Positions 3,648-61,632 of a stretch of 64,000 bases of DNA are shown here, piece by piece. A model generated the notes under the pieces. It ran no database searches, was not told the DNA's origin, and saw nothing but the letters and a program-made list of their open reading frames with translations. The stretch is from Raillietiella orientalis. Lineage: Eukaryota. The DNA lies in assembly GCA_036172245.1 (NCBI GenBank), contig JAYWIR010000088.1, forward strand, positions 1-64,000, written 5' to 3'. The translations under genes were made by a program, and so were the position numbers. The stretch's first letter is position 1, and the number at the start of each line of letters is the position of its first letter.

Positions 3648-4023
3648 TCGAATGCTTTGTGCAAATCGACCGCGACGGCAAAGGCTCCCGCCGAGTCCGT
3701 CCTATCCTCTGCATGATCTTCTTGGTCAGAGGGGCGCGCGAGGCTCCCTTGACCATCCTGAGCAACGCGTTGTCGCAACTGCCACCATGAGCTGACGAGG
3801 AGCAGTTTCGCCTCCCTGGCAGCAAAACTTCTCGCTGGAGGCGAGGGACGATCGGTGCAGGCTTTCACTCCTCCCGAAGAAGGTCCTGCGACGCAAGGGG
3901 ATTCCTCCACCTCTATTTCTGCGTGCCCTGGCTTCATTTTCCTCGGAAAAGAAACACCACACCCAAAAGGAACAGCCGCAAAGAAGCACCAAAGGCGAAG
4001 CGCAAGAATGCACGTCCGAACAA
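3648..4023 (-). mobile_element. Internally deleted LINE: 5' UTR and ORF1 start fused to an RT fragment, interrupted at the KAFD motif
   Basis: Starts TTGTTCGGACGTG (5'-end motif). ORF1-type 'RSFAA' runs into RT 'EAKLLLVSSWWQL...AVAVDLHKAFD'. Confidence 0.7.
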
Positions 4024-4200: not shown

Positions 4201-4652
4201 GAGGGAACTGCGGAATGTCAACTGTTGGAATGTCAAAGGCTTGCGCGACGACGGTGACAGGCGAGATACATCCGACACCTTGCGGGAGTTCGACCTGTCC
4301 CTGTTGCAGGAGATCCACGTGATCACCTCGGCAGACGTCCAGGAGATCGAAACGATCGAGCGGTGTCTGCTGTACTGGCAATGCGGCATCCGCAACACCT
4401 GCGGGGTCGAGTTCTTCGTGAAGCAGGCTATCGACGCTGCCGTGAACGGCGTCCGCTTCGATTACGACGGTCGGGTGAGTCAACTGCTTCTCGGCTGGTC
4501 CGACTCGAACGATCTGATCGTCACGAATGTGTACGCCCCAACCGGTCAAAAGGGATACAGCAACAGTACCAGGTTGCTTGAATCCCTCAAGCGCGACTGG
4601 CTGGCCAACACGAACGTGCGGAAGCCTCACCTGATAGCGGGAGATTTCAATC
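4200..4652 (+). pseudogene. Family D APE, N-terminal half (host of the family A insertion)
   Basis: CWNVKGL...DLSLLQEIHV...NVYAP...HLIAGDFN; homology stops exactly at GDFN. Confidence 0.88.
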
Positions 4653-4730
4653 GAGTGCGGACGTGTTTTTCTTCGCTCTCGTCTCCGTGCTTTCATCCGC
4701 TTCATCTTGGCGTCGTACATTTTGACGACG

Positions 4731-6650
4731 ATGTCGACCCAACCCGAAGCTACTGAAGTTGGAGGAACAGCATCCGGATCTGCAATCGCGGAACCGAAGG
4801 CCGCCTCCACTTCGTCTTTCTCGCCAATGGAGAGGAGTTTTGCTGACGTTGCTGCCACAGCAGCCGTCAAAGGGAGACCACTCGACGAGTCGGAGTTGCG
4901 GGCATACGTAGCCCAAGGCTATCGACCTGCTCTCCGATATAAGGTGAGTGGTTTTCTTTCTGCGCGCGAAAGGAATCAGTTCAACGATGAACTGAACCGT
5001 GTTGGCGTGCGGGAGGAGGACCTCCTCGCCATTATGCCTGTAAAGGATATGGGCTATTTCAAGGTGCGTTGCAAAGACGCTGCACTTGTGCAACGCTTGC
5101 TGCGCACCCCGTTGTCGATCCGTGGCCAGAAGGTCTTCCCGGCCGCCATGGACGACTCATTTGTGGCGGAGATTTTCGACATCGAGTCCGAAATCTCCGA
5201 TATTGATATTCGGAACGCTTTGGCGAAATTCGCCACGGTCCATGCGCGGTAAAGGGTGCGTAGCAACCTCAAGGACCTCCCGTCCATACACAGCAGAGTC
5301 GCTGGAGTCCGGCTTACAATGCCGGACCGCCGTCTGCTGCCCACCAAACTACAGGTGAAAGACACGGTCGTTCACCTGTAGTTCGTGGGCAAAGTAAGAA
5401 CGTGCGAGCAATGCGGAAAGGAGGGGCATTGTTTGGATAAATGCCCCTCTGGAAAATGCCGTTATTGCAAACTATCAGGGCACCAATTGGAAAATTGCCC
5501 GGATCTTTTGCGAAAAAGGCAGCCGCGGAGCTCCATCTTAAAAAACAAAGCGCGGATACAAAGAAAAAATCAGCGAAAAACCTGGAGACCCCACGGCACA
5601 AATTCGGTAAAAACGGGAGGCGGAATGTCGCCCCAAAGCAGCAGGAAATTTCGCACGCGAAGCCCTGCGCGCCCCCTCTAGCGGCAGGGAGCCGCAAAAG
5701 AAAGGGTGCGGGGAATCCGGGGCAATGGTAAGTCCCCCTAGGCGCAATAGCAGTCCTTCCCAAGCACGCCCGGCTCTCTCGGAGTTCGAGCAACCGGCGG
5801 GGACACCAATGGACAACGGCGGTAAGGACATTTCCAGTAACGTCAGTTCCATTCCTTCATCCCCTGCAGTGGCTGAGAAGCCCAAATCGGGTAAGAAGGG
5901 TTGTGCCGTGTCGACTTCGAAAGTCGGCAAAATAAATCCGCGTCGCGATCCAACACCGCGAAAGCGGAGAAACATCTCACGGCGTCGCAGTCGGAGAGCA
6001 AGCTCTCGACTGGCGCGGATGCCATGACAACGCAGGGATTAAAAGCCCTTCCGAAGGTAGGGTGCATGACGAGCGTGTCGGAGCCATCGAAAGTGCTCCC
6101 GTCCAAAGACGCGGATGGCCTCAAAGATGGCAATGGAGCACAATCTCCATTTACGGCGCCACGCAAAGTGAGGAACCGTAATGAAGTAAAGAAGACTTCA
6201 GCAAGGGTCCCTCGTGGAACTGCGCGTGAGCACGCTGAAAACGCGCGCGCCGGGAAAGCAGCCGTCACAAAAAGCGATGCTCTGGTAACGGAAAACGACA
6301 ACACGACAGCTGTCAATCCAGCAGAACCTGTCACTACTTCGCGGAAGGCCGAAACCCGATCGAACATGCGCCGGTCGGACTCCGAAATGGATGCCGTACC
6401 GATCACCGAGACGAGGACAACTCGTTCGAAAGCGTGTGCGCGCCGATCAAAAGTAGGCAGCCAGGCAACGCTCGCCGCGAAGCAACGCGAAGTCTCCACG
6501 AAACCCGACGGGGTTAAGCCTGGCGTGGAGGCATTACATGCATGCAGCACCACAGAGGACGGTGGCGACCGTCCCCTCCAGCCAGTCGTGCTGCTCGCCG
6601 TCTGATCGCCGGAAGAAGGGAGCACAAAGCCGCCACCTTCCCAGCAGTAA
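4731..6650 (+). pseudogene. ORF1 (gag-like nucleic-acid-binding protein, two CCHC knuckles), disrupted
   Basis: RSFADVAA and LVQRLLRTPL N-terminal domain; CEQCGKEGHCLDKC and CRYCKLSGHQLENC; K/S/A-rich tail ending SQQ-TAA at 6648-6650. Confidence 0.88.
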
Positions 6651-9600
6651 TGCATGGAATCGCGTCTTCTCGTCGTCTGTCCGTAACGTGTTGAAACGTG
6701 AACGGACTACAGAACGACGAGAAGAGGCGATTAGTAGCCAACGCCCTGCGCCCCTTCGACCTGGCACTCCTGCAGGGGATTCACGTAATCTCGGACGTGC
6801 AGGCAGCCGAAATCGAGGAGCGCGCAGGCGGAACGCTACATTGGCGGTGCGGCGGCGCACGCACGTGCGGCGACGCGCTCCTCGTAAGAGGAAAGATGGC
6901 GGAAGCGGTGCGTAGTGTTCGTATTGATGACGACGCACGGATAGGCCAGCTTGTCATCAAGTGGTCCGAGTCCATCGATCTCGTCGTTAGGAACGTCTAC
7001 GTGCCGAATGGCATTCGCTACCTCGAAGAAAGAGTACCTTTCTTTGGTGAGGTGCAGAGCCACTGGCTCAACAACATTGGCTTCCAATTGGGGCACCTTG
7101 TTGCTGGGGACTTCAACGTCCGCCTGCTCTCCGACGATTGGAGCCGCCCGAGGGACCGCGCGCTGTCCATCGTGATGTGCGCGTCCGTGCATGCCGCCAA
7201 CTTGATGGTCAGCGAACCTGGAATGGAAAGATCGCTCGATTACGTTTTGCTCAATGAAAACCTGCATTCGCGCGTGGGAAGGACAGGAAGATTGCTGACT
7301 AGGCTTTCTGACCACCACAGGTGTGAGTTTGAGATTCTTCCGCCAGGCAGGGGGCCTCCGTTGCAAAACTGGAGGATGCAGGCACATTGGCTTAGCCAAC
7401 CAAAGGCTGCGGAGCATCTACGTGGACACCTCCGAGGATTTGCCATTCAAGAACTTGCGGACTGAGACGATCTCAAAAGATCTGTCCGCGAGATTTGCTG
7501 CCAATTCCCCTTGTACCAGCTTCCATGCGGTTTCGGAGAGGGCGTGGCCAACAGTAGAGACTTTCTGCAGGCCCGCACGTTTTCGAGACGCGCGGATGTC
7601 GGGCGTCTCGCAGAGTACAAGGCGAGGGCCGAGCGCCAGGTCTGGCAGTCCGGAGCAGCATGCCTGTTGGACGACAAGGGCTAGGAATGTTCGGCCCCAG
7701 CCGAAGTACGCCGCATTGTGAGACGCTACTACTCCTCGCTGTACGCGGAATCCCCGACGGAGGATATTCTTTCTGAGATACTCCTGTCTCAGGATGCTCG
7801 TGTTGTCGGCGAGGAGGAACGCGAACGTCTCAACGAGCCCTTCACGCCGGATGAAATTTCGTCCGCCATCGCTGGGCTGAAGAGACGAAAGGTGCCAGGC
7901 GCTGATGGGCTCCCTGCAGAGTTTTATCAGTGCTTTGCAGTGGAGCTCATTCCCTTGATGCTGAGACTCGCAACGCTGATGAGTGAATCCGGGAATGTCC
8001 CGGATTCCTTATGCTCAGCGAAGGTGCGTCTCCTGCCGAAAGGCGGAGACTTGCGTCAACTTAACATCTGGCGCCCGATCACCTTAGTAAACTCGTACGT
8101 CAAGTTGTTTTCCAAGGTGTGGGTCGCGCGGTTAGGAAGTATCGCGGAATCTGTGGAGAGCCCGTAACAAACCTACGCGGTTCCGGGACGATCCATGGAG
8201 GCGAACGTCCTTTTCGCGCGTACATGGATGCAGCTGCAGGAAGTTGTGGCGCAGCAAAGCCATGCTGCTGCGAAAGTCACTGCCGCAGGCAAGAAGAACA
8301 GGCGCCGACGGCAGGAGGCAACGCCAAGTGCCTTGGTGGTCGCGGTCGTTCTCCAGAAGGCGTTCGACTGCGTAAACCAGAAGCTGCTTTTGGAGCTTAT
8401 AAAACGCCTTGGGTTCCCGGTGCAACTCCTGCTGTATTTGCGCGCGTGCTGGCGCCACGCGCTTACCTGCACCACTTTCAGCGGCTGCCGCATGTAAGGT
8501 ATTCCCGTGCGTAGGGGCATCCGACAGTGCGACAGCTTCAGCGCTTTGCTCTTCAGTATCTTCTTTGAGTTGGTGCTTAGAGCATACAGGCTGACGCCGT
8601 CTCACTTGCCTAGCTCCTGCCCGGGAACGCCTGCCGTGGCCGCCTACGCTGATGACCTGCTTCTTCAGCTCCCCATGTTCACCCCGGCGTCCAGTGTCGA
8701 GGATTTCTTCGACCTGATTCGTCATGGAACGGGCGTGAGCGTGAACAGAGAGAAAAGCGTGGTCGTTCCTGTGGGTACGTCGTGGGAGGAACAGTCCGAC
8801 TGGATCCGCCTGGGGATCCCCACGAGCGGGTACCTTAAGTACCTTGGCGTTCTGTTGGGCGCTTACGGCGCAGCCGATGCGTGGGCGGACTATCTTCAGA
8901 AAGCAGAGTTGGCCATCAGCCCGTTCCTTAACGGCAAGTTTACCTTGCAGGAACGGGCGTCTATTTGGAACACCTTTGTGGCCCCCCTCCTCCGTCCCCT
9001 GTTTTTTGTTTTGGCCCCCTCTATGCGGCGAAACAGCGGGCTGAACACCTGCTCTGGAACGCTTTCTGGGGTCCGGCTAGTTCCAGGTTCTGCCTTAAAG
9101 CTTTGTTAGCTCCGCGTCGAGATGCTGGTTTGGGTATCCTGACAATGGAGCGAATCGGACTGCAGGTGCAGTTACGTCTGCTGGCACTGTGTGCCCAGCT
9201 ACGGACATCTTCCCTGTGTGTGCCAGCCCGCGTTCTCCTGCGGAGATGCGCCGACAGCATAGGATTTCTCTCGCTTTTGCCGGGCACTCAATACAGGAAG
9301 CGGGGTTTCGGGTTTCCATTGCGGCAGTTGACCGCACTTCTGGAAGCTCACTTGTGGATCTCCTGCCGCCCAATGAACTTTGAAGCTTGGCGGCAGGAGT
9401 CTGTTGAATCCTGGGCGGCGTTCCAAGGAATACGCTTTGAAGATCTTCGCCCCCTGCGTCAATTTTATCCACGATCCTTGGAAGAATTACTGCAGGACGA
9501 GGTGAAGTTTTCTACCCTGGATGCCACGCGTCTTGCCGCAGCGCTGTTTGCCCTCAGGGCAAGAAACGACAGTTACCAATAGGCGAGGTTGGAGATTTCC

Positions 9601-10243
9601 TGCACGATAGCGGGAAAAACCAAAATTCCTTGGTGCCTGGAAGACGAGTGAGTTGGCGGACGCCGCCACCTCTTGTGCTGCTGCAAAGGGTCTCCTCTGG
9701 TGGGCAGAAGAACTTGCTGTCACCCCCAAAGAAGTTGTAGTCCCTTCACAGTGTATTAGCAGTTCGCTGCTCTCCCTTGCTTGGAAACAAGACGCGTTGG
9801 TTTTTGTTCACTGGAGTTTTCAGTGCAACGAGCGTTGGCATCGTGACTCCGGGGGGCTTGCGTCTGCGAACTGCGTTCGGTGCGGATCCACGTAGTCGAT
9901 TCCGCACCTACTTCTGGACTGCGGTGTCCTACAAGGACTGTGGCGTAGGCTGACAACAGCACTAATGCATCCCGTGGACATCGCAAGAGACTTGCTGCGG
10001 CGATTCTTCACGCCGAGCGGGCTGTCCCTAAGCGCAAAAATTGCAACCATCGGTTGCATACGCGCGATAGTTTCCGTCCGCCAGGCGTTGGTAATCAACG
10101 GACAGCACCAAGAGGTAATCAGCAAAGCATCCTTCCACATGGAAGCATCCGGTAGATGGCCTCATTTGACAGAGGAGACAAAAAGGAATCTCGCCGCAAT
10201 GCACCGCCGGTTTACACACGCTCAGCAGCGGCTAACCCGGTGA
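6650..10243 (+). pseudogene. ORF2 (APE-RT-zinc finger), disrupted
   Basis: NVNGLQ, LQGIH, AGDFN, LSDHH; PGADGLPAEFY, WRPIT, KAFD, GIRQCD, AYADDLL, KYLG; NCVRCGST..PHLLLDC. Confidence 0.92.
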
Positions 10244-10556
10244 TCATTGCCCTACCCTCCATAAACTAATTTTGTATTTTCTTTTCACACCCGCGTCCCC
10301 ATAGGCTCCGGAGCATTCCAGGTGGTCATCGTTTAAATCTTTGTGAGTTCGAAGCCTAACCAAAAACCCGTTACCCTTCCCTCCAGTTTTTGATTTTTGT
10401 TTGTTTTTCCTCATTCCTCATACGCTGCAAACGGTTTGTCTACCAGGCCTGCGTGCCGGTAATTTTTCTATGTTCCCTGTCGTTCTGTTGGTTGGAGACA
10501 TTGTCCCTGTCCAGTTTATCATTATTAATAAACGCTCCGGAGTGACCGGGTGATAA

Positions 10557-10899
10557 ATTTTAATCTCCGTCTGCTATCAGTTGATCCTAAAACACAAGTA
10601 AACCCTATGAACGAGATCTACGCCGCCATGCGTGCGCGCAACTTGTTCGAGGGTGAGAGGGAAATTAAGCGCAGCATCGACCACGTCTTCTTCTACGCTG
10701 ACCTGTCTTCACGGGTCGGCAAACGGGGGAAGCTTGCGTCGACGCTGTCGGACCATTCGCGGCTAATTTTCGAGATGCGGCCTCGCGACAAGGGACCGCC
10801 ATTCAGGGATTGGCGTCTACCGGGGGACTCGACGCGACTGACAAGTGCGAAGAAACACCTTTGCGAATTCCTGAGAGGCGTCACGCTCCAGAGTCTCTC
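10557..10899 (+). pseudogene. Family D APE, C-terminal half (continuation of 4200-4652)
   Basis: FNLRLL...SIDHVF...LSDH...LRGVTLQSLS, then interrupted by a minus-strand 3' end. Confidence 0.88.
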
Positions 10900-13707
10900 T
10901 TGAAACCTGGTACGCCGGGACGTTTATGTGTTCAAATAAACTTATATAAACTGTGACTGGACCAGTAGTGCAGCCACGCCCTGGAAACATTCAGCCTGCC
11001 GGGCTACCGGTGCACAGACCGACGCGATCGACCTCGGCAGCAGAGAAGAAAGGGAATCAAAGAGAAAGAACAAAAAGAAATAAACAAAACCGGGATAGGA
11101 GCGGGAAGGGACCACTGTCTGTTGAGAGGGTCCGTCAACTTCTGGAGGATGCACGCAAGCTTTCGCTGAATGGTGGATTCCAGATGGGGCCATCGCGTCG
11201 ACTTCCTCAGGAAACGGGCGGCGTACACGGTGGTGTCCCTGTCGCTGGACACTCCCGTCGCTTTGCTCCAGGCCACGACGATCCCGCGTAGGCAGCACAG
11301 GGTTGCAAGCAAGGCCGCCGCAGGCAGGGCGTCACGGACGAAGAGGGGGCGCAAAGAGTCTCTGGAATTGTCTCCGCAATTCCCCAGGGCCGCGGAAAAG
11401 CGTTACTACAAGGGACGGAGGGCAACACATTCCAGTAACAGGTGATGGAGGTGTTCCCTCTCCCCGCAGCTGACACAATTGGGGTTCACACCCCACCGCG
11501 TCCAGTGGTGTCGGCGGGCGTTGCAGGGGAGGCCTCAATGCGACACCAGTAGTGCCGACTGTTGCCACTTCATGGGGAGGGTGCGCGAGTCCATGGGCAA
11601 CGGGGGCTTCTCCAGATATTCCTCTGGAACACCCAGTAGCTCGTCCCAGCGCAAGAGACCATTTGCGGTGGTCCTCGGGGTCGCAGCGCTGGTGAGCTGA
11701 CCGGTTCTCCAATCCCCGATCTTCTTTGCCCTACTGGTGATCTTGACAGTGAAATTTCATTGTGCCGCGACGTCGCTGCCCAGATGTTCCCGTATTGTAG
11801 GCAGTACCGCAGCAAGTGAGGGACTTTGAGCCCACGCTCTTTTTCGGGGTTCCTCGAAGATTTCTCGGAACGTGCGGTGGGCGTGCGGACCAAACAGAGC
11901 TATTCGCTGTTGTTGCAGGCTCTGCTCCTGAGTCATCGCCCACGTGCGGACGGTTTCCTGCAGCCAGGCAGGACCGTTCGCGGAACGTACGAGGATCCAC
12001 TCCGAGTTGGTCTTCACGAGCTTCGCCGCCCTTCGAAGCTCAAGTCCGCCGTAGCAGATATGGCTTCCGAGTGCAAAGTAGGACGAGAGTCCCGCATTGA
12101 TGGTGGCCCGCTCGACGAGGAGACGTGCAGGGAGGTACCAGGCGGTGCACCAATTTTTTGCCATAAAGGCAACACTCCGGAACAGGAGCTGAAGCTCAAT
12201 CCGCTCCAGCGTCAGGAGGCCAAGACCGCCGTCCCGACGCGGAGCGCACAAGTCCGCGAGACGGACTCGGGGCCTCTTTCTACCCCAAAGGGCTATCCTC
12301 AGGAGGTCCTTCGTCCTTTTCCTAGACTCCGCTGTGTGGGGGCAAACAAAAAGCAAGGGGCGAAGGAGGGGTGCCGCAAACGCGTTCCACGCCGCGGCCC
12401 GTTCCTGCAGGTAGAACCTGCCATCCTGGAACAGGCAGATCGCCGTTTGAGCCTTCTGAAGGCAGCCGGATTACGCTTCCGCAGGGGAGTAGTCCCCCAA
12501 CGGCACACAAAGGTACTTGAAGTACCTCACCGTGGGGATCCCCAAACAGACCCAGTCCTGCTGCTTTGCCGACGCCGCTCCGACTGGCATTACAAATGAC
12601 TGCGCTATGTTCACCATAAGTCCGGTTCCATGATGATGCAGGTCGAAGAACTCCTCGAGCACCGAAGCCGGTGTGGACATAGGGAGCAGCAGCAGAAGGT
12701 CGTCCGCGTATGACGAAACCGCAGGCGCACTGGGACAATCTCGCGGCAGGTGCGCCAGAGTCTCCCTGTACGCTCTCAGAACCAATTCAAAAAAGGCGCT
12801 AAAGAGCAAGGGGCTCAGGCTCTCTCCCTGCCGGATCCAACGTCGCACCGTTACGTTGTGCACGGTTTGCCCGCTGGAAAAAACATTAATGATCGCGTCG
12901 CGCCAGCTGGAGCGCAGGTAGGCCAACTAAGAGGCCGAGAAGCCCAAGCGTTCTAGAAGCCCCAGCAAGAGATTCTGGTCGACGCTGTCGAAAGCTTTAC
13001 GCAAGTCGACAGCGACCGCAAGGGCTCCCTAAAACACCCAACCGTCCCGTCTTTCGCCATCGGACGCACCGGAATTCCGGCTGCTCACTAAGACTGTTTG
13101 CTTGTTGGAGCTCTAATCATGTGGAAGCGTGGAACAGGTTTGCCTCTATGCTTCGCCCGGGAACAGCATAAGTCTGTTCCGGGCTGATGAAGATGTTGGA
13201 AACAGGTCCCAGACTCTCTGCTTACATCTTAGTTATCAACTTGGCGTCCTCATTCACTATTGTGATTGGACGTCAGTTGTTCATGTCCGTATCTCCTGCC
13301 AGCAAGTTTTGCGTGTGCATTTGTGCGCACAACTCGTTGACGTGGTCGTTCAGTGTAACCGGCGCACTTCAAAGCAGGCGCAGGTTGAAGTCACCTGCGA
13401 TCATGTGCGCTTTGTCAACACCTGCTTCGATTAGCCAATCGCCTTCAAGGGCGAGGTAGAATTCTCTTCTTGCATTCGTTCTTAACGCGTATCAACTGCT
13501 AGGAGCGTACAGCTTGGTGACGATCAGGTCGATTGAGTCGGACCAGCTGAGAGTCAGCTGACCGACGCGACCGGAGTCATCAAACCGTACGTGCTTGATT
13601 ACGGCCTCGATGGCTGGCCGAAGCAGGAAGGCGATACCGCTAGATTTCGCGGTGAGGCAGCGCCACAGCAGCTGTGAACCCGAGATCCCTTCGATCTCCT
13701 GCGCTCG
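10900..13707 (-). mobile_element. Family C-like LINE: 3' UTR, RT, internally deleted APE
   Basis: 3' end ATAAACGTCCCGGCGTACCAGGTTTCAA; SYADDLL, RQGESLSP, GGLG. APE is fused to RT at ~13285. Truncated at AQEIEG by the next element. Confidence 0.9.
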
Positions 13708-16533
13708 TACAGTGCCGACGTGTTTCCGCGTCTATCCGTGCCAACGATCGGGCAACTTTGTTCCTTCGTTTTCACTCGCACTTGTGTGTTCCTGGGCAAT
13801 CTGCAGAGCGGCATAGTGCAACATGGCCAGTACACAGGATAGTGTGGAGGAGCAAGCCACTGGATGCACTTCAGCTGCACTTGAAGTGACTGCATCCTCC
13901 GTAATGGTTTCCTCGCCCCCAATGAGGAGTTACGCCGCCGTTACCTCCCAAAGACCAGGACCCTGCGATGCGGAGTTCCAGGCATATGTGTCATCAGCAT
14001 ACATGCCTGCACTCCGTTATAAGGTCAGTGGGCCCCTTAACGGGAGAATCGGTCGTGAGCTCAATGATGAGCTCGTCCGGATCGGCGTTCGCGAGGAGGA
14101 ACTCCTTGCCATAATGCCTGCTGGCAGGATGGAATATACGAAGATTCGGTGCTAGAACGCAGCACTTGTGCAGCGCCTCCTCCGTACGCCGTTGACCATC
14201 AATGACAAGGAATTCCTACCTACCGCGATGGACGACTCTTTTGTCGTTCAATTGTGCGACATCGAACCGGAAATCTCCGACCGCAATGTTGTGAGCGTGC
14301 TGGCGCAGCTCGCCAACGTGCACACCCTGTGGAGGAGGCCGAACTGTTTGAAGGATTTCTCCTCTGTCCACATCGGACAATCCTCGGCGCAAATCACCGT
14401 CGCGAACAGGCGTGTTATGCCTGAGTAGCTGCAGGTGAACGGCACGGTCGTACACCTGTGGTTCATAGGCCAGACTCGCGCGTGCGAGCAGTGCGGCAAG
14501 GATGGGCACCGAATTAAAGAGTGCCCCTCTCCAAGATGCCGCTATTGCAAAGATTCCGGGCACGAAATCAAAAAGTGCCCGGTACTTGCAAGAAAAAGAG
14601 CCGCAGCGGAAATTCGTCGGGTTCAAGAGACCACTGCACGAAAAGCCGCAGCGGCAAATAGAAAACGTCGTTCGCAAAAACTCGCAAAAAACCACGAGCT
14701 ATCCGCGCATGAAAAGAAAGCATCCCCGCCCGCAACGCCCCGAAAGGGGAAAGCCACGGCGGGGAAGCCAATTAAAAAGGGGCGCGAGGGTTTGACGCGT
14801 GCCTTGCCTGTGCTCTCTGCCGAACTCGCAGGCACCTCTCCGAGCCAGGAACCAGGAAATCTCCGTAACACCCTGGAAGGAAGGGTAGGAAAACAGGAAC
14901 ATCGCAACAGTGCGAAGAATTCTTGCCCCGTTCCGTTGTCCCTTCCGAGTTCCGGACAGCCCACTGCAGCGCAGGCCCCTCTGCAAAAGCTACGAAAGCC
15001 GTAAAAAGCAGCGTCGCGACGAGCAAAAGCACGCTGCATACAGTAGCCCTATCGCCCACTTGGCAGGAGAGGAGCAATCTCCCTACTGTCAAGAAGGTGA
15101 CTCCGTTGCCGCCTTTTAAAATCGTAGCAAAAGCAACGCCCCCAGAGAACGCAGCGAAAATCCCGGAGGTTTCCGCAACTACTATCGCTGAAGCCACAGA
15201 AATCGCGAAGGCGAATGAAAGGTTGTAGAGAGGAGGAAAGAAAAATCTCCAAGAAACGCTTAGCAACATACATCCTTGAGCTCTTCCAAAGGAAAAAGCA
15301 GTCGCGCAAATACGAAAACACGCGCGGCTTGTGCCTCTTCCCAGGAAAAAGTCAGCGCCTTCAACGCGTGCAAGTCCGCTTCTGTGACCGCCGAGAAGAC
15401 CATTGCGGTGCAATCGGACGGATGCAAACGCACGTCGATCGTGCGAGCATCAGATTCCTCAAAGGATTCCGATAGCGCAACTAAACGACGCGTCACTCGC
15501 GCGGGAGCGAGCGCTTGCAGGGCTAAAGCCCTGAGGCGTGGCACACTCGCCGCGGAACGGCAAGTGCTCACCCCGAAACACACAGGTTCTGCACCCGGGG
15601 AGGAGCACCCGATTACGTGCAGCACAGTAGAGGCCTTTGGCAAACGCGCCCTCCAGCCCGTTGTGCTGCTTTCTGCCCGCTCGCCGGGTGAGGCGGGCAC
15701 CAAGCCCTCGCTTTCCCAGCCGTGATAAGGGCAATCGCGTCTTCTCGTCGTGTTGCCGTGACGTCTTGGAACGTCAATGGGCTCCAACACGAGGAGAAGA
15801 GGGGACTTGTTGCTCACGCTCTGCGCGCCTTTGACTTGACGCTCCTGCAGGAGATTCACAGCATCTCCGAAGAGCAGGCTTCCGTAATCGAACAACGCGG
15901 GGGCGGAACGCTACTTTATAGGTGCGGCGCTGCACGTACGTGCGGCGTCCCTTTCCTTATGCGAGGAACTTTGACAGGAGCGCTGCGCAGCGTTCGTTTC
16001 GACACGGGAGCCTGAGTGGATCAGCTTCTACTGAAGTGCTCCGACTCCCTCGACCTTGTCGTAACCAACGTGTACGCGCCGAGCGGTGCTTGAGGATGGG
16101 CCGAAAGAATTGAGTTCTTCGGTACCGTTTAAAGCCAGTGGCTCACTCGATCTCACTCTACTGTCTCCCAACTCATTGCGGGGGACTTCGACGTCCACCT
16201 GCTTTCCGATAATAGCTTCCACAAAAGGGAAAAGTTGCTAGCGGAAGAGATGTCCGCATCCGTGCATGCGTGCAACTTGTTCGCTAGCGACTCTGTGATA
16301 ACAGCCACGCCGGATCAAATATATCTTGATGAACACTTGCTCTCTCGAGTGAGACGGAAAGGTCCTGTGCCGTCCCTGCTTTCAGACCACAACAGGCTCA
16401 AATTCGAGTTGCTCCTGCCAGGCAAGGGACCTACAAACAGTTTTTGTAGGATGCCGGCAGAGTGGCTAAGCCACTCGGAGGCGTCTGTGCATCTTCGCCA
16501 GTACCTCCTCGGGTTTGCCATGAGTAAGCTCGA
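13708..16533 (+). mobile_element. Family B LINE, 5' half (5' UTR, ORF1 13823-15725, APE 15725-16533)
   Basis: Starts ACAGTGCCGACGTG; RSYAAV, CEQCGKDGHRIKEC, CRYCKDSGHEIKKC; WNVNG, LQEIH, GDFD, LSDH. Ends LLGFAMSKLD. Confidence 0.92.
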
Positions 16534-16758
16534 TTTTCAACCGGTTGCGCTGGGGTGTTTGTTCTTTGGAATAAAACAAACGTTGGTCACTGACCAGGTA
16601 GTCCGACCACACACTGGTATACAAAATTAAGCCTACCGTTCCACTGGCTCGTATTCTGGCGCGGTCCACCACGAAAGCAGAGGGGCCAAAGACAAGACAA
16701 AAAATAAAACAAATAAAATAAATATATAAAATTAAGATCTGGGGGGCACCAGAAGGGA

Positions 16759-25689: not shown

Positions 25690-26889
25690 GCACTCGAGAT
25701 ACTGATGCTCGAAAGCGAAACCATCGACCTCTGGTATCTGGGGAAGCCGACATACTGTGGCTTCTGCAATACGTCGGGCTACCTGAAAAAGAGGTGTCCC
25801 AACGTGCAGTGCCAAGTTTGCGGCACGATGGGTCACACAAGGGAGGTGCTTTTAAAAGCAGAAGTGCGGGTGGTTTCCAAGAGAAACCTTAAAAAACGTG
25901 TCCGGCTTCTACTGAAAAGGCTGGCGGCAAAAGCTGCCGAGAAGGCTGTGCCACCCGCTCCCAAGACCAAGGCCGCACCCGAGAACCCGGCGAGCAACGC
26001 CGAAAAAGTTGAGGGAGCCGGCTAGGAGACCGGGTGGCAAGTGGCAACAGCCAAAATATCAAAGAAGGAGAGGAGGATGGAAAAGAAAATCGCCTACCAA
26101 CAGAAGAAGAAAGAGCAGGATAGTGCGATAATTAAAGAGTGCAGCGTCGTCGTCGAACGCGTCCTCGATTGCCGTCGTTGCCCAACGCTGCCAGAAAGAA
26201 CTCCCGCTACCGACACCCTTTCGTCTGTTGACTCTGTCAACAGCGAGGGGAGCGAGCCGGCGGCGGTGTCCGTCATCGACTAACCATCGATGACAAAGCC
26301 TTTGCGCGAGCAGCGGAGAAACTGGCTGTTTCGTTGCAGCCAGAACCCTGCAAGGCTGGCAAGAATGCCTTAAGGCGTCCGTCCTCCCCTCAGGAGTCCC
26401 TCACTTCTGACCTTGAGGTGGAGGCCGGAAGCGCAGCCTCCGTTTCCACGGCACCGCGCAAGGATGGACGTAAGTTTACAAAGCCGAGGAGGCTCGTCTC
26501 CCCCGTCGAAGGGGAAGAGATGGCTTCCGCAAGCAAGCGTGCCATCAGCGTGGTGAACTCGCGGGAGCCGTCGCTCGAGAGACTCCCACGCGCGGACACG
26601 GAGGGGATGGAGAGGCTGGAGGCCGAAAACGTGCTTCAGGTGCCTGAGAAAGCCGAAACTCACATAGACATCTTGCCCGCCATGCAAGAGGTGGGCTTCC
26701 CCACACCTTAATGTTTCCAGCAGTAATGCCTGGAATGTCCTCCCGCCGTGGTCTGTGCATCGCCGTTTGGAACGTGGACGGCATGACAGACGCCGGCAGG
26801 AGACCAGACATCTTCGCCCTTCTGGGAACCTACGACCTTGCGCTGCTGCAGGAGATCCACGTGATCTCTGCAGAACAAGCGCAAGAGAT
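25690..26889 (+). mobile_element. LINE fragment (family E, C-related): ORF1 C-terminal half plus APE start
   Basis: CGFCNTSGYLKKRC, CQVCGTMGH; TAATG at 26724-26728; WNVDG..LQEIHVISAEQAQEI, then interrupted. Confidence 0.88.
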
Positions 26890-28466
26890 TTCTCACCCGG
26901 TCACGCCAAGGCGTTTGTTCCATATAATATAACCAAAAAACCAATTGTACAAAATAAATTAGTTAAAAACCAAACTCTTATTCGACGAATGAACAAGAAT
27001 GACGAGAATATTGCTAACACGCAGGCCAGAGTAACAGTTTTGCGAACGGTGTGGGAGGGCGGGGAACACATACAAACCAAAGTAAAATAAAAACAATGAA
27101 TTAGGAGGACGGGATAGGGGTCTTTGGGATCGCTCTGGAAGACACGGGGATAAAAGCATGGGCACCGGAAATTTTACCGAACGAACGGGGACGGGGTATG
27201 GGTAGGCGAGAGGTAACAGGGCTAACCGGATTACGCCGTTCTCAAAGGTGTGTAAACCGGCGATGTATGCCGGTGATGTCCTGATTCACCTTGTCACGAA
27301 GATGAGACCACCTTGAAGCCTTCTCCATGAATTGAGTAGCAAGCAGGTGAGTCTCCGTTCGCTGCGCTCACAACTCCAGGGCGTAGCGGGCCTTCACGAT
27401 GGCGCGAACGCAACACATGGTTGCGACAATCGCGCCAACCGAAAGTCCATTTCTGCTGAAGAAGCGCCGCAGCACATCAATGGCAGTGCCTCATTGTGGC
27501 ATGATGGCCGAAGTGAGCCTTCGCCACAGTTCCCGGAGGTCACCGCAGTCCAGCAAAAGGTGCGGAAAAGACTCGATCTCTCCGCACCTTAAACAGTTTG
27601 GCAAAGCAGCTCCCCCGGAAACGATGCTTCGCTGCCTATTACAGTGTAATGCACAATGTAAAAAGAGCAGCACATCTTGTTTCCACTCTAGGAAGAACAC
27701 GGAGCTGTCCAAACAAACGGGGAAAACCACTATCTCTTCGGAGGGCACACTTAAATGTTCGCTCCACCGAAGCAGGCCCTTCGCCCGATTCCGAGGAGTG
27801 GCGGCTTGCTGCAGCTACTTTGTCGTCCAGCTGCCGAGGAGCTTACTGACTCCCGCTATTTTGCAGGAGAACTCCCATTCCGCTGGTAGGTAACCCTCGT
27901 TGCTTGACCTTAAAGCAGACAGCGCTGCAGCGAGTGGTGTGGCGACCAGACGATCCGACATCTTGTTGTCCTGCATTACTTTCTCCATTGGTTGACTGAG
28001 GAGAAGTCGCAGGCGTCGAAGATCTTCCGGGCGCGTTCCTTCGGAAGCTGCCCACGATGAAAAAGATTCCTGCCGCCATGCATAAATGTTCATAGGGTGG
28101 CAGCAGATCCAGCTTTGGGCTTCCAGGAGTGAGGACAGCTGCCTCAGCGGGAAGGCAAACCCTATTCTGGTGTGCCGAAAGTGAGGTAGCAACGGAAGCA
28201 GTCCCTCGCTTCCCGTGCAGTGCCTCGGTATGAGGCGTGCGGGTAAGCACTACGGCGTACACCACAGCTTGGCACAGAGCCGCAGCATGCGAAACTGCAC
28301 CTGCAGTTCGATACTGTTTAAGTGGAGGATGCCCAAGCCTGCATCCTGAAGCGGCGCCACAAAGTCTTTAAGTCTAACACGATATCTTGCAGCGCCCCAC
28401 AACGCTTTGCGTAGAAGGCGCTGCGCCCAGACCTTGACTTCCTGGGTGGGTTACAAAGAAAAAACA
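26890..28466 (-). mobile_element. LINE 3' portion (probably family B): ORF2 C-terminus plus 3' UTR
   Basis: NCLRCGEIESFPHLLLDC; FPLRQL..WRQES resembles family A but the 3' UTR differs. 3' end AAACGCCTTGG-CGTGA-CCGGGTGAGAA. The family assignment is an inference. Confidence 0.85.
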
Positions 28467-31400
28467 GGATTCATGCGAGGTTTCAGCTTGCAGACGCTTC
28501 AGGACAGGGACCGCTTCAAGCGCTCGGTCCGGAGTTTTTGCGACGAGTTCCCTATGAACCTCCTGACTGCCGTGTTTGGTGAAAGCATGCGTAACGGGAG
28601 ATGGTATTTACAATCTCGATGTTACGCGCGAACACCAGACGTACGTAGGCTAACCGAATACCGTGCGGGAGCCGAGAGGCAGGCGTGGCAATCCGGGTCG
28701 GGCAGCTAACTGGACGACCAGGGTTCGGAGCACTCAACCCTGCCCAGGAAAAAACGCATATTAAAAAAATTCTACTACTCCCTGTGCGCGCGCGCTCCAA
28801 GGGAACGGGATGTCTCGCGACTTCTTCTTCCTGAGGGTGCTCCGGTGATCGTGGAGGAAGATCGAAAGACTTTCGACGAGCCTTTCACGATGGGCGACAT
28901 CATCTCGGAAATCGGAAGACTTAAGAAGCGGAAGGCTCTAGGAGAAGACAGCCTGTCAGCTGAATTTTTTCAATGTTTCTCGGCAGAGCTCACTCCTCTG
29001 CCTAAGAAACTCACCTTGCTGATCCGGGAAATGGGCGACGTCCCCGCTTCGTTTCGTTCGGCAAAGGTGCGTCTCCTCCCTAAGGAAGGAGACCTTCGGA
29101 GCATGAGCAACTGACAACCGATTACCGTGATGAACGCAGACGCCAAGTTGCTGGCGAAATTGTAGGCTCAACGCCTGAGGCGGTTAGCGGAAAGCTTCAT
29201 TAGCCCGGAGCAGACATATGCTGTTCCCGGGAGGAGCATGGATGCCAACCTGTTACTCGCAAGCACCTTTCTCGCGTTCCAACAGGAAAGGGTAAGGATG
29301 GGCAACCGGACTTCCGTAATGTCCGCAGCTAGGAAACGGGATGGTTGGAAAGGGGAGGGAGCCCTCGCAGTCGCAATCGATTTGCATAAAGCATTCGACT
29401 GTGTCGACCAGAGACTCCTCCTGGAGCTCCTAGAACCCTTGGGCTTCCCGGTCTCTTTGGTGACCTACCTGCAAACTTACTGGCGCGACGCGCTTATCCA
29501 GATCTTTTTCAGTTGACAAACCGTGCACGGCGTACCGACGCGACGCGGCATACGCCAGGGAGACAGTCTGAGTCCCTTCCTATTCAGTACCTACTTCGAG
29601 TTGGTACTGAGAGCGTATAGAGAAACTCTAGCGCACCTGCCGCGCGACTATCCCGATACGCCCGCAGTGTCAGCATATGCGGACGACCTACTGGTGCTAC
29701 TCCCTATGTCCACCCCGACATCGGCGGTCGAGGAGTTCTTTGTCCTGCTAAGTCGGGGAACCGAGCGTGAGGTGAACAGGGCGAAGTCGTCCGTCATGCC
29801 AATCGGTGTGGCGCGTGCAGGGCAGCCGGAATGGGTCCGTTTGGGGATCCCCACAATACGCTACTTCAGGTACCTCGGTGTTTCGATGTGTGATTATCTC
29901 CCTTCGGATGCGTGGTCCAGCTGCCTTGAAAAGGTAGAGACGGCGATCTGCCCGTTCCAAGGTTGCAGGTTTTTCCTGCCCGAACGGGCCGCGGTGTGGA
30001 ACGCATTCGCCGCGCACCTCCTCGTTTCCCGGCTTTTTGTTTGTCCTCCTACCACAGAGACTAAAAAGCGGACGAAGGACCTCCTAAGGATTTCCGTGTT
30101 GAGTAATGGGAGGACCCGAGTCCGGCTTGAGGACTTGAGCGCTCCGCGTTGGGACGTCGGTCTCGGCCTCCTGACGCTAGAGCGGCTAGAACTCCAGCTC
30201 TAGTTTCTATTACTCGCCCTTGTGGCGAAATATTGGAATAGCGGTTTGTGCGAGCCCGCACGTCTCCTCGTCGAGCAGGCTACAGGCAAGGTGGGACTGT
30301 CATCCTTCCTCGCGCTAAGTCGGCGCCGCCAAGTCGGTCACTGCGGGTTGCAGCTACGCAGAGTGGCTCATCTGAAGAGGACGAACGCAGGATGGTTCTG
30401 CTGTCGCCCCGTTCACGTACCTGCATGGCTGCATGAAACGGTTCAGGCGTGGGCAGAGAGCAACCAGCAACGCACCCAAGTAGGGCAGAAACAATTCTTT
30501 GCCCGTAATGAACGCCTGACGCTCCGGGAGGTCCTGGAGAACCCACAAAAACGAGCGTGGGCAAGAAAAACTCTCCTCGCTGCAATGCTGTTTCCGCTCG
30601 CAAAACATTTGAACAGCAACACTGCTGCGAAATGGGATTTTTACATCAAAATCTCCGGTACGGAGAAAGAGATCGGGGAATGGAAAACGGGAATTCTGTG
30701 CGATACTGCGGCTTGGATTACCACCCCTAATGGACTTGTGCGCTGGGGTGAGCTTATTAATGTTCCGCGTGGATAATTGAATCGGCCCCCGGTGCTGATG
30801 AACACCTCCACCCTCCCCTTAAAATGGCAGGAGTCGGCGCTGTTGTTGCTGCATTGGGGACTTCCCTGTTCCTCCCGTCGACACCATTAAACCTGGGGAG
30901 CGGTGAGCCCTAATTGTGGGAGGTGTGGAGAACGGAAGTTCCATACTCAACTCCTTTTGGATTGTGTGGCACTTCGGAACCTTTGGAACCGTTTTGCCGC
31001 CGATATCGGTAATCCCTGTGGCAACCCTAGAGACGCAATTAGATCCCTCTTCGTTTGCGACGCCCTTCGGCCCTCGTCCTCGTTAGCAGCTCTGTGCTGC
31101 TTTCGCGGGATCGTCGCGGCATGGAGCAAAGCAACGGGAGAACTTCGCGAGAAGGGTGCCGTCCAGTGCGCAGCCGAATTTATGCGGACGGCGACAGAAT
31201 GGACCCATCTGGATTCAAACATCCAATAACAGCCTGCCGGCATGCTGAAAAGGATGTAACGGCCCCACAGCAGACTGTGATCCTTTCTTATGCAACTTAG
31301 ATCTTGATTTTGGATATTTTTTTTTTTGGTTTTATTTTTTGTTTTGTCCTTTTCCCCTCTGTTGTCGTGGTGGTCTGTACCGGAATACGAACCGGTAATC

Positions 31401-31506: not shown

Positions 31507-31996
31507 CGAGCGAGAACGGACTGGTTTTTGTTTCGCTCTTGAGCGTTTGTGGTTTTATTCTTTTTTTTTTTTTTTTCTTGGTGTGCCAGTGGATTTGGTG
31601 GTGGCCAGGCAGCAATGCCTGGGTCCACCACTAGTGATAAGGTTGGGGCGACGTCTATTTGGCCCCTTGTATCAATGCATGTGGTAGCAACTGCCTTCAC
31701 AGAAGCGTCTCCCTCGTTAAGGAGAAGATGGAGTGCCGTGGCTGCGGCGCCAACGCAAGCGGCTGCGGCTGAGTTCAAAGCCTACCTGGAGGAGGTGTAC
31801 ATTCCTAATCTACTCCGCAAGGTAGGCAACCTTTACTCCTTTGAGAGTTCGCGCGCTTTTGTGAAAGCGATGCACTCCCTCAAAGTACCCCAGGAGGAGC
31901 TCTTAGCGATGACCATGAGGAGTGGTGCACAGTACGTTGAGGTGATTTGCAAAGTAGCAAGTCTTGCCCAGCGTCTGCTCCGTACACCTGTTCCTG
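31507..31996 (+). mobile_element. Family C 5' UTR and ORF1 start, head-to-tail with the previous copy
   Basis: Homologous to the reverse complement of ~21580-22056 (MPGSTT..RRWSAVAAAPTQAAAA..LAQRLLRTPVP). Confidence 0.88.
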
Positions 31997-32368
31997 TTGC
32001 GGGAGTTCGACCTGGCCCTGTTGTAGGAGATCCACGTGATCACCGCGGCAGACGTTAGGAGATCAAGACGATCGCGGGGGGTCGGCTGTACTGGCAATGC
32101 GGAGGCCGCAACACCTGCGGGGTCGTGTTGTATGTCAAGCCAACCATCGACGCTGCCGCGAAGTGCGTAACGTTTGATGACGACAGTCTGATCGTCCAGC
32201 TGATGTTCAGGTGGTCCGACTCGATAGGTTTGAGAGTGACATAAGTGTATGCCCCCAGCAACAGACAGGGCTACAGCGACCGTAACAGGTTGCTGGAAAC
32301 CCTGAAGCGCGACTCGATGGCAGACACGAATGTGCGAAAAGCTTAACTGCTAAGGGAAGATTTCAATC
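31997..32368 (+). pseudogene. Family D APE fragment ending at the (G)DFN codons
   Basis: Collinear with 4280-4652; ends GAAGATTTCAATC. Confidence 0.85.
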
Positions 32369-34835
32369 GAGTGTGGACGCGCTTTTTCGTCGTTTTTCTC
32401 TCTAGGCTGTCTTATTCCTAATGCTGATGTCGTGAACTTCGACGACGATGTCGTGCCAAAAGAAAGCCGCTGAAGTCGGAGGACCAGCACCAGGATCTGC
32501 AATGGCGGGAGCGACGGCCGTCTCCACTTCGCCTTGCTCGACAATGGCGAGAAGTTTTGCTGACGTTGCTGCCGCAGCAGTCGTCAAAGAGGGACCCACC
32601 GAGGAGGCAGAGATGCAGGCTTACGTAGCCCATAGCTATATCTACGCTCTTTGCTACCAGGTCAGTGGATTTCTTTCTGTTCGCGACGGTAATCAGTTCA
32701 ACGACGAATTGACCCCCATAAGCGTGCGGGAGGGAGACGTTCTCGCCATCATACCCATTAAGGGCCTTGAATATTACAATGTGCAATGCAAGGACGCGGC
32801 ACTTGTGCAACGCTTGCTGCGCACTCCTTTGTCCATCTCTGGTAAGAAGGTCTTCCCGTCTACCATGGATCAGTCGTTCGTGGCGGAGCTTTACGGCATC
32901 GAACCGGAAACTTCCGACCGCGAATTGCGTACTGTGTTAGCGAAATTCGCCACGGTCCATGCTATGTAGAAGGCTGGAAGCACCCTTAAGGACTTTTCAT
33001 CCATCGTCAGCAGTAGTGCCGCGGTTCGAATAACCATGCCGGACCGCTGGCTTCTACCCTCTAAGCTACAGGTGAACGACACGGTCGTTCACCTGTGGCA
33101 TGCAGGCAAGCCTCAAGTATGAGAGGGATGCGGCGAAGAGGGGCATTATCCACAAAAGTGCCCTTCTGGTACATGATGCTATTGCAAGCAATCCGGGCAC
33201 AACTTAAAGAATTGCCGGGACCTTGCTAGAAACAAAGGCAGCCGCAAAGCATCAGCGCGCTCAATACGTCGCGAAAAAGAGAAACATGGCAGAGGAAAAA
33301 CAGTGCGCACGGGCTAAGTCTCGTACCGATGCGAAGCGAAATGCCGGACAACAGCAGGGGTCCTCAACGTTGAAGCTCCTCGCGTCCCACTTAGCGGCAG
33401 GGAAGATGCAAAAGAAATGGCACGGGAGCTCAAAGAACGACTCCAGAGCTCGTGTCAGCGATCGCGGAACCTCGGTTTTTACCCAGGGGCCAACGAAGGC
33501 CAAGGGAAAAGAACCGCTAAACGGCGATCGCGGTCAAGTGCAAAATAAACATTCCACGACCTTGCCCCCTTCAAAACAAAAGAATCCAAATGGCCAAAAA
33601 AGGAAGGAGGCCTTCGTTTAGGAATTTGAAACCGGAAAAAATAATCGCTAGCCTCTTGGCAGCGCCCCTTCAGCGGAGAACCGCTCTCCGTGCGCGATCG
33701 GAGAGCAAGCTTCCGACTGACAGGGATGCGATCCCGTCGGAGAAGTCAACACCGGTCTCACAAGCAGCGCCGCTGACAGCCGAGGAGTTAACCTCATGGG
33801 TTTTCGCGGCGCAACAGGAAATCGCCTCCGAATACGGCGAGAGCGAGTGGACGGTGGTGGAGAGGAGCGGTAAGAAAAAAGCTCCAAAAAACACTCCACA
33901 GCATTCGTCGAAAGCGCTCCTGAAGGCGAGAAACTCTCGAGTGATGAAAAAGAGTCGCGCGAAAGTTCCTCGTGCAATATCGGGATCTGATGCTGACATC
34001 GAGCCAGCTGTAAAAACAGCCTCCGAAAAAAGCAATACCACATTACCAAAGAGCGCAAAAACGATCGCTGTCTAAAGAAAAGACAGCCGCTGCTCTTCGC
34101 GTGTCGCGAAGAGCGAGTCACGCGAACACCATACAGACTCCGCATCGGAGAAGGACCCGATTTCCGAACGTCGACTAACTCGTTCGGAAACGAAGGCGCG
34201 TCGCGTAAAAGCCGGCAGGCGGGAGATTCCCGCCGCGTAGCAGTTTGAATTCTTCCCAAAATCCGAGAAGGAGACACATAAGGTGGGCACCTCAACTGCA
34301 TGCAGCACGACGGAGGATGGTGGCGACCGTCTTCTCCCGCCGGTCGTGCTGCTCGCCATCCGCTCGCCGGATAAAGCGAGCAAAAAGCTACCGCCTTCCC
34401 AGCAGTAATGCGGGGAATCGCGTCTTCTCGTCGTCTGTCCGTCGCGTGTTGGAACATGAATGGACTGCAGAACGACGAGAAGAGAAGATTAGTAACCAAT
34501 GCCCTGCGCCCCTTCGACCTCGCGCTCCTGCAGGAGATTCACGTAATCTCCGACGAGCAGGCAGCCGAAATCGAGGAGCGCGCAGGCGGAACGCTACATT
34601 ACCGGTGCAGCGACGCCCACACATGCGGCGTAAAGTTCCTTGCAAAAGGAAAAATGGCGACAGCGGTGCGTGGTGTTCGTTTGGACGACGAATGACAGGT
34701 TGGCCAACTTGTCATCAAGTGGTCCGAATCCAACGATCTCGTCGTTACCAACATCTACGCGCCGAGTGGCTCTCGGTACCTCGAAAAAAGAGTTGCTTCC
34801 TTTAGTTAGGTGCATAGCCACTGGCTCAACAACTC
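32369..34835 (+). mobile_element. Family A LINE, 5' part (ORF1 32448-34408, APE start at 34408)
   Basis: Starts GAGTGTGGACG; RSFADVAA; decayed knuckles; TAATG; MRGIASSRRLSVACWNMNGLQ..LQEIH. Confidence 0.92.
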
Positions 34836-36256: not shown

Positions 36257-36381
36257 GATTGAAGTCGCCCGCAATGAGGTGCGACCTTCGCACGCCCCCT
36301 TCCACCAACCACTATCGCCGCAGGGATTGAAATAACGCAGTGCGTTCATTGGCCCTGTGGCTGCCCACTGAAGCGTACAGG
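36257..36381 (-). pseudogene. Short APE fragment ending at GDFN (host of 34836-36256)
   Basis: Minus-strand translation LYAS..LFQSLRR*WLVEGGVRRSHLIAGDFN. Confidence 0.8.
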
Positions 36382-39241: not shown

Positions 39242-39590
39242 ACTTCAACGTCCGCCTCCTGTCCGGCGTTTGGAGCTGCCCCAGGGAGAGCGCGCTGCTT
39301 ATCGCCATGTGCGCGCCGGTGCAAGCCGCCAAATTTATGGTCAGCGAACCTGAAACTGAAGGATCGCTCGATTACGTTTTCCTCGATGGAAATCTGCATT
39401 CGCGTGTGGTTAGGAGTGCAAGATTGTTGACTAGGCTTTCTGACCACCACAGGTTGGAGTTTTAGCTCCTTCCGATAGGCAAGTGGCCTCCCTTGCGAAA
39501 GTGGAGGATGTAGGCGGATGGGCTTAGATATCCGGAAGCTGCGGAACATCTTCGTGAACACTTATGAGGCTTTAGCATTCAAAGATTCGC
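39242..39590 (+). pseudogene. Family A APE, C-terminal half starting at DFN
   Basis: FNVRLL..SLDYVF..LSDHH..GFSIQRF, homologous to ~7110-7460. Confidence 0.88.
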
Positions 39591-61581: not shown

Positions 61582-61632
61582 GGACGGACGGACGGACGGA
61601 CGGACCGCGCGTGCGCGCCGTCCGTCCGTCCG
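61582..61632. repeat. (GGAC)n facing (GTCC)n microsatellite inverted repeat
   Basis: GGACGGACGGACGGACGGACGGAC, then a CGCGCGTGCGCGCC spacer, then GTCCGTCCGTCCG. Confidence 0.7.

Follow-up and report, generated by a model that had tools for sequence, protein, structure and literature searches.

An L1-like retrotransposon family found at one position in the ORF2 of its sister families, within a nested cluster of Raillietiella orientalis

Even for R1, it is an open question how long interspersed nuclear elements (LINEs) of the apurinic/apyrimidinic endonuclease (APE) type, with an endonuclease that recognizes only ~5 bp, come to use one site. The question is raised here by a stretch of 64,000 nucleotides from Raillietiella orientalis (GenBank assembly GCA_036172245.1, contig JAYWIR010000088.1, positions 1 to 64,000), which we call the window. 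From 1 to ~47,000, with a GC content of ~55%, the window is a dense nested cluster of decayed L1-like retrotransposons without long terminal repeats (non-LTR retrotransposons). A first-pass annotation had reported that one of their families, family C, lies at the same nucleotide position, with the same codon offset and the same antisense orientation, in three hosts whose target DNA is poorly conserved, and all three junctions are present as it gave them. We consider it probable that family C is a target-specific APE-type L1-like LINE, and that the sister families of the cluster home into each other's second open reading frame (ORF2) through target-primed reverse transcription (TPRT). The sample is this one window with its six decayed C copies.

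All pieces were placed on A1, the sole uninterrupted full-length copy, by self-blastn, by tblastn with ORFs of the window and with JGI protein P0001 (a relative discussed below), and by tblastx. The labels A, B, C, and D are those of the first-pass annotation; the remaining element labels are ours. A slash within a sequence or between two neighboring positions marks a junction.

Family C junctions in the APE-RT linker

The 3' ends of three C copies meet their hosts at 10899/10900 (C6 in host D), 16533/16534 (C2 in host B), and 39590/39591 (C5 in host A3), and each copy is antisense to the host ORF. The junctions follow the second nucleotide of one and the same codon in the conserved peptide ..EHLRGxLRGFxxQxL/xDWDxFK.., which links the APE and reverse transcriptase (RT) domains, and the host endings read CAG AGT CTC TC/ in D, AGT AAG CTC GA/ in B, and CAA AGA TTC GC/ in A3. 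In the ungapped tblastn alignment to the uninterrupted A1, all three hosts break off at query residue 84/85. Each junction lies 24 codons + 2 nt beyond an anchor codon shared by all, which equals position 7458/7459 of A1.

Host D is present in two parts, both on the plus strand: its APE from the start to the motif GDFN (..GGA GAT TTC AAT/) at 4214..4651, and its APE C-terminus with the linker, from the GDFN site to the C site, at 10557..10899. Between them lies A1 (4652..10556, plus strand), a full-length family A element inserted after GDFN, with an empty C site (GAA CTT GC/G GAC). C6 (10900..13705, minus strand) belongs to an older C subfamily; its 3' end is ..CCAGGTTTCAA at 10900, it has an internal deletion (A1 coordinates ~7129-8060), and its 5' side is cut at the peptide QAQEI by the 5' end of B. 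Host B (13706..16533, plus strand) starts with CGTACAGTGCC.. and comprises ORF1 with a CCHC knuckle, the APE, and the linker up to the C site. C2 (16534..22061, minus strand), with the 3' end ..CCGGTTGAAAA at 16534, is the only C copy that appears to be full length (~5.5 kb). The A-like host A3 (39242..39590, plus strand) spans the APE C-terminus and the linker, starting at the GDFN site and stopping at the C site, and C5 (39591..42924, minus strand), whose 3' end is at 39591, has an internal deletion (A1 ~6985-7277) and is cut on its 5' side at QAQEI by the 5' end of the B-like element B'.

Nine copies in the cluster retain the linker position. Three of the nine are interrupted, all exactly at the site, all by an antisense insert, and all in non-C copies; the other six sites, those of A1 and five C copies, are uninterrupted. 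Non-C copies are thus hit in three of four cases and C copies in none of five (Fisher p = 0.048, on a small sample), which suggests that family C spares itself.

The hosts are far apart in sequence, as the first-pass annotation had said of the target DNA: over the 320 nt before the junction, pairwise identity is 60.3% for D and B, 52.8% for D and A3, and 57.3% for B and A3. In the RT core, C2 and C5 have 96.7% identity, and C6 is ~75% identical to both. Since the hosts are 53-60% identical against 96.7% between the RT cores of C2 and C5, the three C insertions are independent events, and specificity for the linker is maintained across C subfamilies differing by ~25-30%.

The likeness of C2 to C5 is itself a mosaic, with 96.7% identity in the RT core (17985-18677 vs 41032-41724) and 70.4% in the last 350 nt (16534-16883 vs 39591-39940). 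We read this as recombination or gene conversion between copies, or as descent from recombinant source elements.

The three linker junctions stand as the first-pass annotation listed them, but they are not a complete census: the window holds six C 3' ends, with three at the linker, one within RT motif A as a secondary site, and two in tandems. No further junction was found in the linker, over which scattered additional junctions would have spoken against a fixed position. The secondary site is that of C1 (1..3647, plus strand), an older-subfamily copy that runs off the window start and has an uninterrupted linker site at 655/656. Its 3' end, ..CCGGGTGAAAA at 3647, joins host H (3648..4012, minus strand), an internally deleted element with a fusion of its ORF1 N-terminus to a fragment of the RT. 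C1 is antisense to H and sits in RT motif A (..VDLHKAFD; AAA GCA TTC GA/, the 11-mer AAAGCATTCGA); the local motif is the same, but the place is nonhomologous. The 11-mer is uninterrupted in C1 and C4 and has one or two changes in C6, A2, and F, with TTCGA kept in all five.

The two tandem ends lie directly against the 5' termini of C-like elements, head to tail and with no spacer, beside the sequences ..CTCG and ..CTAGA. In one, the 3' end ..GGGTGCAAA of C3 (22062..25702, minus strand) abuts the 5' end of C2, CTAGTGAGAG.. at 22061. In the other, the 3' end ..GGGTGGAAAA of C4 (28467..31506, plus strand), a 5'-truncated copy that starts 34 nt before the linker-site equivalent, abuts E' (31507..31995, plus strand), a C-like 5' untranslated region with the start of ORF1 that is ~86% identical to the 5' part of C2. 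Such C-C tandems would most simply arise by repeated use of one site, a recognized part of which survives insertion, or by template jumping of the RT between C RNAs. Template jumping between RNAs is known from work on R2.

What fixes the position

In the last 5 nt before the nick, the three hosts have only Y-T-C-[G/T]-[A/C] (YTCKM) in common. A1 (5.9 kb) contains 48+44 = 92 YTCKM sites on its two strands, and 13+12 of the form YTCGA. Were the 92 YTCKM sites equally likely targets, at least three of the four non-tandem C junctions would coincide on one of them with a probability of 4.7e-4, and with every position allowed the figure is 2.9e-8; chance coincidence of the linker junctions is excluded. 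YTCKM precedes the nick at 3/3 of the hit linker sites and at the H site, and at 0/6 of the intact linker sites. Positions -4 to -2 of the linker site are TC[G/T] in all hit hosts, TTG in the intact A1, and TCC, TTC, or TTT in the intact C copies, and at -2/-1 the C copies have CA (once TA) in place of [G/T][A/C]; none of them is hit. The nick motif looks necessary but not sufficient. That a motif of 4-5 bp cannot by itself explain the recurrence, as the first-pass annotation argued, is borne out by the 92 sites in A1 and by the TTCGA of the RT site, which is mostly left uninterrupted.

The best-conserved DNA near the site in the six intact copies is the block GGACTGGGAC directly 3' of the nick, followed at some distance by TTCAA and TCGGTCC. 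Within this block, A1 matches the C copies at 9/10 positions, compared with ~6/11 just 5' of the nick. Judged from sequence, the block is the best candidate for a second determinant, and it fits the more distant conserved element that the first-pass annotation had suggested, but five of the six copies belong to family C, and in the hosts that were hit that side is gone.

In the mechanism that we propose, the C ORF2 protein would nick the sense strand of related LINEs at the fixed position in the APE-RT linker after YTC[G/T][A/C], and the 3'-OH freed at the nick would prime reverse transcription of the C RNA. A second determinant, most likely protein recognition of neighboring conserved DNA, would fix the position. 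Because it would be the nicked sense strand that primes copying of the C RNA, the insert would come to lie antisense, with a precise 3' junction and a 5' side that is variable or lost.

Several observations weigh against linker-specific homing by family C. Half of its 3' ends (3/6) are not at the linker site, the statistic for self-sparing is marginal, and the 3' block is deduced from copies that were never hit. The nick is placed to within ~4 nt, since the last 4 nt at the junctions (TCGA, TCGC, and TCTC) could come from either partner, the host or the end of C; when their terminal 13 nt are aligned without gaps, all six C copies finish in NCGA-like letters, and the nick coincides in the three hosts under either assignment. 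All of this comes from a single window in which every ORF of the cluster is broken. Furthermore, host right halves starting at the C site were found in the window for none of the three events, and therefore no target duplication or 5' junction is visible for the linker insertions. One deletion per nest, with its left edge in the innermost element, could have removed all the right halves, and breaks at ~25702 and ~44250 would suffice. Internal deletions spanning or touching the GDFN site are also seen in C6 (13284-13372) and C5 (~42741-42763), both of which were hit by B-type elements.

Some of these points would also be expected if there were no true site specificity, and insertion followed a short nick motif together with a local property of the host, such as DNA structure or transcriptional openness, or if survival bias acted on a small sample. 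YTCKM is all that the hit sites share, C is found also at TTCGA in RT motif A and beside ..CTCG and ..CTAGA at element 5' ends, and the sample is six copies. We nonetheless hold this unlikely, given the probability calculated above for the 92 motif sites of A1 and the fate of the RT site, whose 11-mer is intact in C1 and C4 and whose TTCGA core is intact in all five other copies, whereas the linker is hit in three of four non-C copies. Fixed sites of this kind also occur in two other families, which speaks for a property of the elements and against one fragile spot, and in a dead nested cluster there would be no obvious selection on the position of an insert. Even less probable, to the point of being barely credible, is that a single ancestral composite of host and C was copied by segmental duplication or gene conversion, making the three junctions one event. 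It is true that the same order, with an A 3' end, a host piece, C on the minus strand, and a B-type 5' end, recurs at two loci (10.5-16.5 kb and 39.2-44.2 kb), and that the mosaic identity of C2 and C5 indicates that exchange between copies does occur. However, a recurring A-host-C-B order is the expected product of three site-specific families, and hosts at 53-60% identity are probably too distant for homologous exchange. We rejected a single duplicated composite because it would give equal divergence in host and insert, and the two loci diverge very unevenly (A1-A2 85%, B-B' 76%, C6-C5 65-75%, and D-A3 53%).

The first-pass annotation had also raised RNA-DNA pairing, and for the ends of the C RNA this found no support: in a comparison of the last 150 nt of the C RNA with 60 nt of the primer strand, duplex energies were like those of shuffles (z -0.57 to +1.30), and the longest Watson-Crick runs, at 6-8 nt, were no better than in shuffles. 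A long shot is RNA-assisted homing in which, besides the nick motif, an internal segment of the C RNA would set the position by pairing to the sense strand of the host, 75-115 nt upstream of the nick. The proposed segment, located ~245-270 nt from the 3' end, covers the final ~17 codons of C ORF2 (sense ..AGCTTGCCGGCATCCTGCAGAGG..). In ungapped comparison, the closest resemblance of host B (-91) to the C2 antisense (+255) is 15/17 nt, which 0/1000 dinucleotide shuffles reach; the nonhomologous host H has a 9/9 match at -115 to the same segment of its own insert C1 (p = 0.011), and the uninterrupted A1 matches the C6 segment at 15/16 nt at -90. Yet this idea is post hoc, the C6-D and C5-A3 pairs give nothing (p = 0.95 each), and by hand calculation the three replicates combine to ~p = 0.16. 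Host D has TGG CGT CTA at that place, like the C copies themselves, and is hit all the same, while A1 matches the segment well and is not hit. Pairing is not above shuffles for families A and G (in a test in which the A1 and A2 element/host boundaries were ~22 nt off), and at the C RNA ends it amounts to 4 nt or less. If true, such pairing would make C a naturally RNA-assisted, retargetable APE LINE. Quite improbable, too, is a three-family reciprocal homing network in which each family would cut the ORF2 of the others at one fixed codon position and C would find its site in targets of only 53-60% identity through a sequence-tolerant second determinant, with RNA pairing at the end of ORF2 as its boldest form.

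One element with three strongly diverged targets, together with look-alike sites that were not hit, amounts to a natural mutational series on which nicking could be assayed. There is also interest in site-specific LINEs as templates for tools of targeted DNA insertion.

Sister families and element ends

At least three sister families, C among them, have fixed sites of their own in the ORF2 of the others: for each of C, A, and B/G, insertions recur at a single defined site in a multicopy target and have a precise 3' junction. Insertions of family A are in sense and immediately follow the APE motif GDFN, with four events (4644-4651 and 10557-10564 for A1; 32367/32368; 36258/36257; 39241/39242), and GDFN is intact in five other copies. 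The left junction of A1 reads ..GGAGATTTCAAT/CGAGTGCGG.. and the right one ..GGGTGATAA/ATTTTAATCTCC..; the 8-bp target duplication, ATTTCAAT (4644-4651) and ATTTTAAT (10557-10564), matches at 7/8 positions. The 5'-truncated A2 (36384..39241, plus strand) has the 3' end ..GAGTGTCAA, with which it meets A3 at GDFN (/ACTTCAACGTCC). The 5' ends of A4 (32368..34833, plus strand) and A5 (34836..36257, minus strand; 5' end at 36257) follow APE pieces cut after GDFN, namely, D2-left (31997..32367, plus strand) and D3-left (36258..36383, minus strand). The 5' parts of A4 and A5 form an inverted duplication of ~1.4 kb with 84% identity (32359-33793 vs 36266-34836).

Elements of the B/G type insert antisense after ..QAQEI in the APE N-terminus, in three events at 26889/26890, 13705/13706, and 42924/42925. 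G (26890..28480, minus strand) represents the 3' part of a third family and, with its 3' end ..CCGGGTGAGAA, lies antisense against J at QAQEI, meeting it at ..AGCGCAAGAGAT/. J (25702..26889, plus strand), of an unassigned family, runs from the ORF1 knuckle to the APE N-terminus and ends ..GCG CAA GAG AT/ there. B' (42925..44250, plus strand) is a B-like 5' part lying head to head with C5 at QAQEI, as B does with C6, and beyond the 5' ends of B and B' the interrupted C6 and C5 resume at AGCGCAGGAGAT.. and AGCACAAGAGAT.., respectively. The left end at the G insertion overlaps the right ends at the B and B' insertions by ~12 nt, which implies a target duplication of ~11-12 bp. Signs of TPRT in the cluster are the duplication flanking A1, this overlap at QAQEI, the 5' truncations (A2, C4, and G among others), and the intact 3' ends.

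As to which family enters which, C is found in A-like, B, and D hosts, B-type elements are found in C, and A is found in D-type and A-like hosts. With LINE families having fixed sites in one another, the cluster grows by LINEs homing into LINEs. This mutual homing would be a simple route to nested clusters like those at algal centromeres, and LINEs that enter one another's coding sequence would clearly exemplify transposon-against-transposon targeting or a "safe haven" strategy. Two A-like 3' ends, K and N, lie at places other than GDFN. K (~4041-4134, minus strand), just upstream of H, has its 3' end ..GAGTGACAA at ~4041, followed by ~19 nt and then by 5'-end-like sequence. N (~52107-52350, minus strand), a short 5'-truncated LINE 3' end (..CCGGGTGTCAA/TCAGTG, with the end at ~52107), has non-LINE surroundings outside the cluster; therefore, A-like elements insert elsewhere too.

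All families share a 5' end like CGAGTGCGGACGTGTTTTT. Nine element 3' ends align to the last base, and 9/9 have the same architecture, consisting of AATAAACG, a 5-bp GC hairpin, and TGAAAA. Compensatory changes were found at 0/5 pairs of the hairpin, which is described here but not proven. None of the nine ends (0/9) has a poly(A) or simple-repeat tail; they finish with 2-4 A after the hairpin. Poly(A) is absent in many LINEs, and its absence therefore does not exclude membership in the L1 superfamily. AATAAA stands ~20-25 nt ahead of every element 3' end (e.g., 3621-3647 and 10531-10556), and the 3' end of the element RNA may be set by this polyadenylation signal, with the tail itself uncopied.

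As in the L1 superfamily, the Exo_endo_phos and RVT_1 matches in copies of C, A, and B share a strand and come in the expected order, the former first, and the C1 ORF aligns with residues 392-507 of human L1 ORF2p (E 3e-10). The closest relative outside the window is P0001, which is 67% identical to the C1 RT. It was the only one of 262 matches above ~35% identity in a protein search with the RT piece and the only match to the APE-linker ORF. Named relatives of the RT piece are plant, fungal, and vertebrate L1-like proteins at ~30% identity. The ESM Atlas returned generic RT clusters only, a search of genome contigs with P0001 gave a single distant RT at 26% identity, and a search of viral contigs gave 0 loci. 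A metagenome scan with a degenerate 3'-end pattern, which proved too unspecific, returned at least 120 loci, with tblastn or blastn similarity to the LINEs of the cluster in 0/120.

Known systems and the rest of the window

By its insertion behavior, family C works like a target-specific APE LINE. In R1Bm and other target-specific LINEs of the R1 and Tx1 clades (Tx1L, Keno, and others), the element is of the APE type and has one site in a multicopy target, as does family C; for R1Bm, as for family C, the site needs more than the nick motif. Tx1L sits in the Tx1D transposon. The target in our window, unlike those of the R1 and Tx1 elements, is the coding sequence of sister LINEs and not ribosomal DNA (rDNA), small nuclear RNA (snRNA) genes, microsatellites, or a DNA transposon. 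Also unlike those cases, one position is used in targets only 53-60% identical, and the sister families have different sites in one another. Target-specific APE LINEs are placed in the Tx1 and R1 clades (PMC4640811), and the isolated R1Bm endonuclease is reported to have only a 5-bp consensus, A(G/C)(A/T)!(A/G)T, even though one 28S rDNA site is used (PMC1919474).

Utopia, an element with a restriction-like endonuclease found in the U2 snRNA gene, is described as having 3' boundaries that are precise, 5' boundaries that vary, and, occasionally, copies in tandem at its target (PMC4640811). To that extent it resembles family C, but its endonuclease is not an APE and its target is a highly conserved RNA gene. 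The Zepp and ZeppL L1 LINEs of green algae form nested clusters, one per chromosome or at putative centromeres, in the passages describing them (PMC3446292 and PMC8226300); the likeness, by description and not by sequence, is that L1-type LINEs are piled up as nested copies, as in the window, and those passages describe no fixed intra-element insertion position. ZeppL of Chlamydomonas is given there as >8 kb (10.1101/2025.03.28.645958), in contrast to 5.5-5.9 kb here, and the elements here are without poly(A). The quoted text on Cnl1 of Cryptococcus has a non-LTR element building long arrays of its own copies (10.1101/2021.08.11.455996). Cnl1 thus resembles our elements in accumulating in arrays; its arrays are subtelomeric and the quoted text mentions no fixed codon-level site in other families, whereas here the families interrupt each other's ORF2. 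In a limited literature search we met with no account of a LINE family whose target is a fixed codon position in the ORF2 of other LINEs.

More than 20 nested or abutting LINE pieces are packed into the ~47 kb of the cluster. ORFs in all six frames are short and broken, and the recurring Pfam matches are Exo_endo_phos (the AP-endonuclease), RVT_1, and the CCHC zinc knuckle, in the element order ORF1 with the knuckle, then APE, then RT. Toward its right edge lies one more LINE piece, F (44250..~46800, minus strand).

The right flank of the window (56000-64000) has a GC content of 68-70%, compared to 55% in the cluster, and many long ORFs in all frames; these show no codon-position GC pattern, no Pfam match, and no recognizable gene. 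A tRNA scan of the window gave 0 genes, and Rfam matched nothing in it besides U4. The U4 snRNA gene is complete (47890-48028, minus strand; 100.7 bits) and lies just past the edge of the LINE cluster; the DNA is therefore eukaryotic and nuclear.

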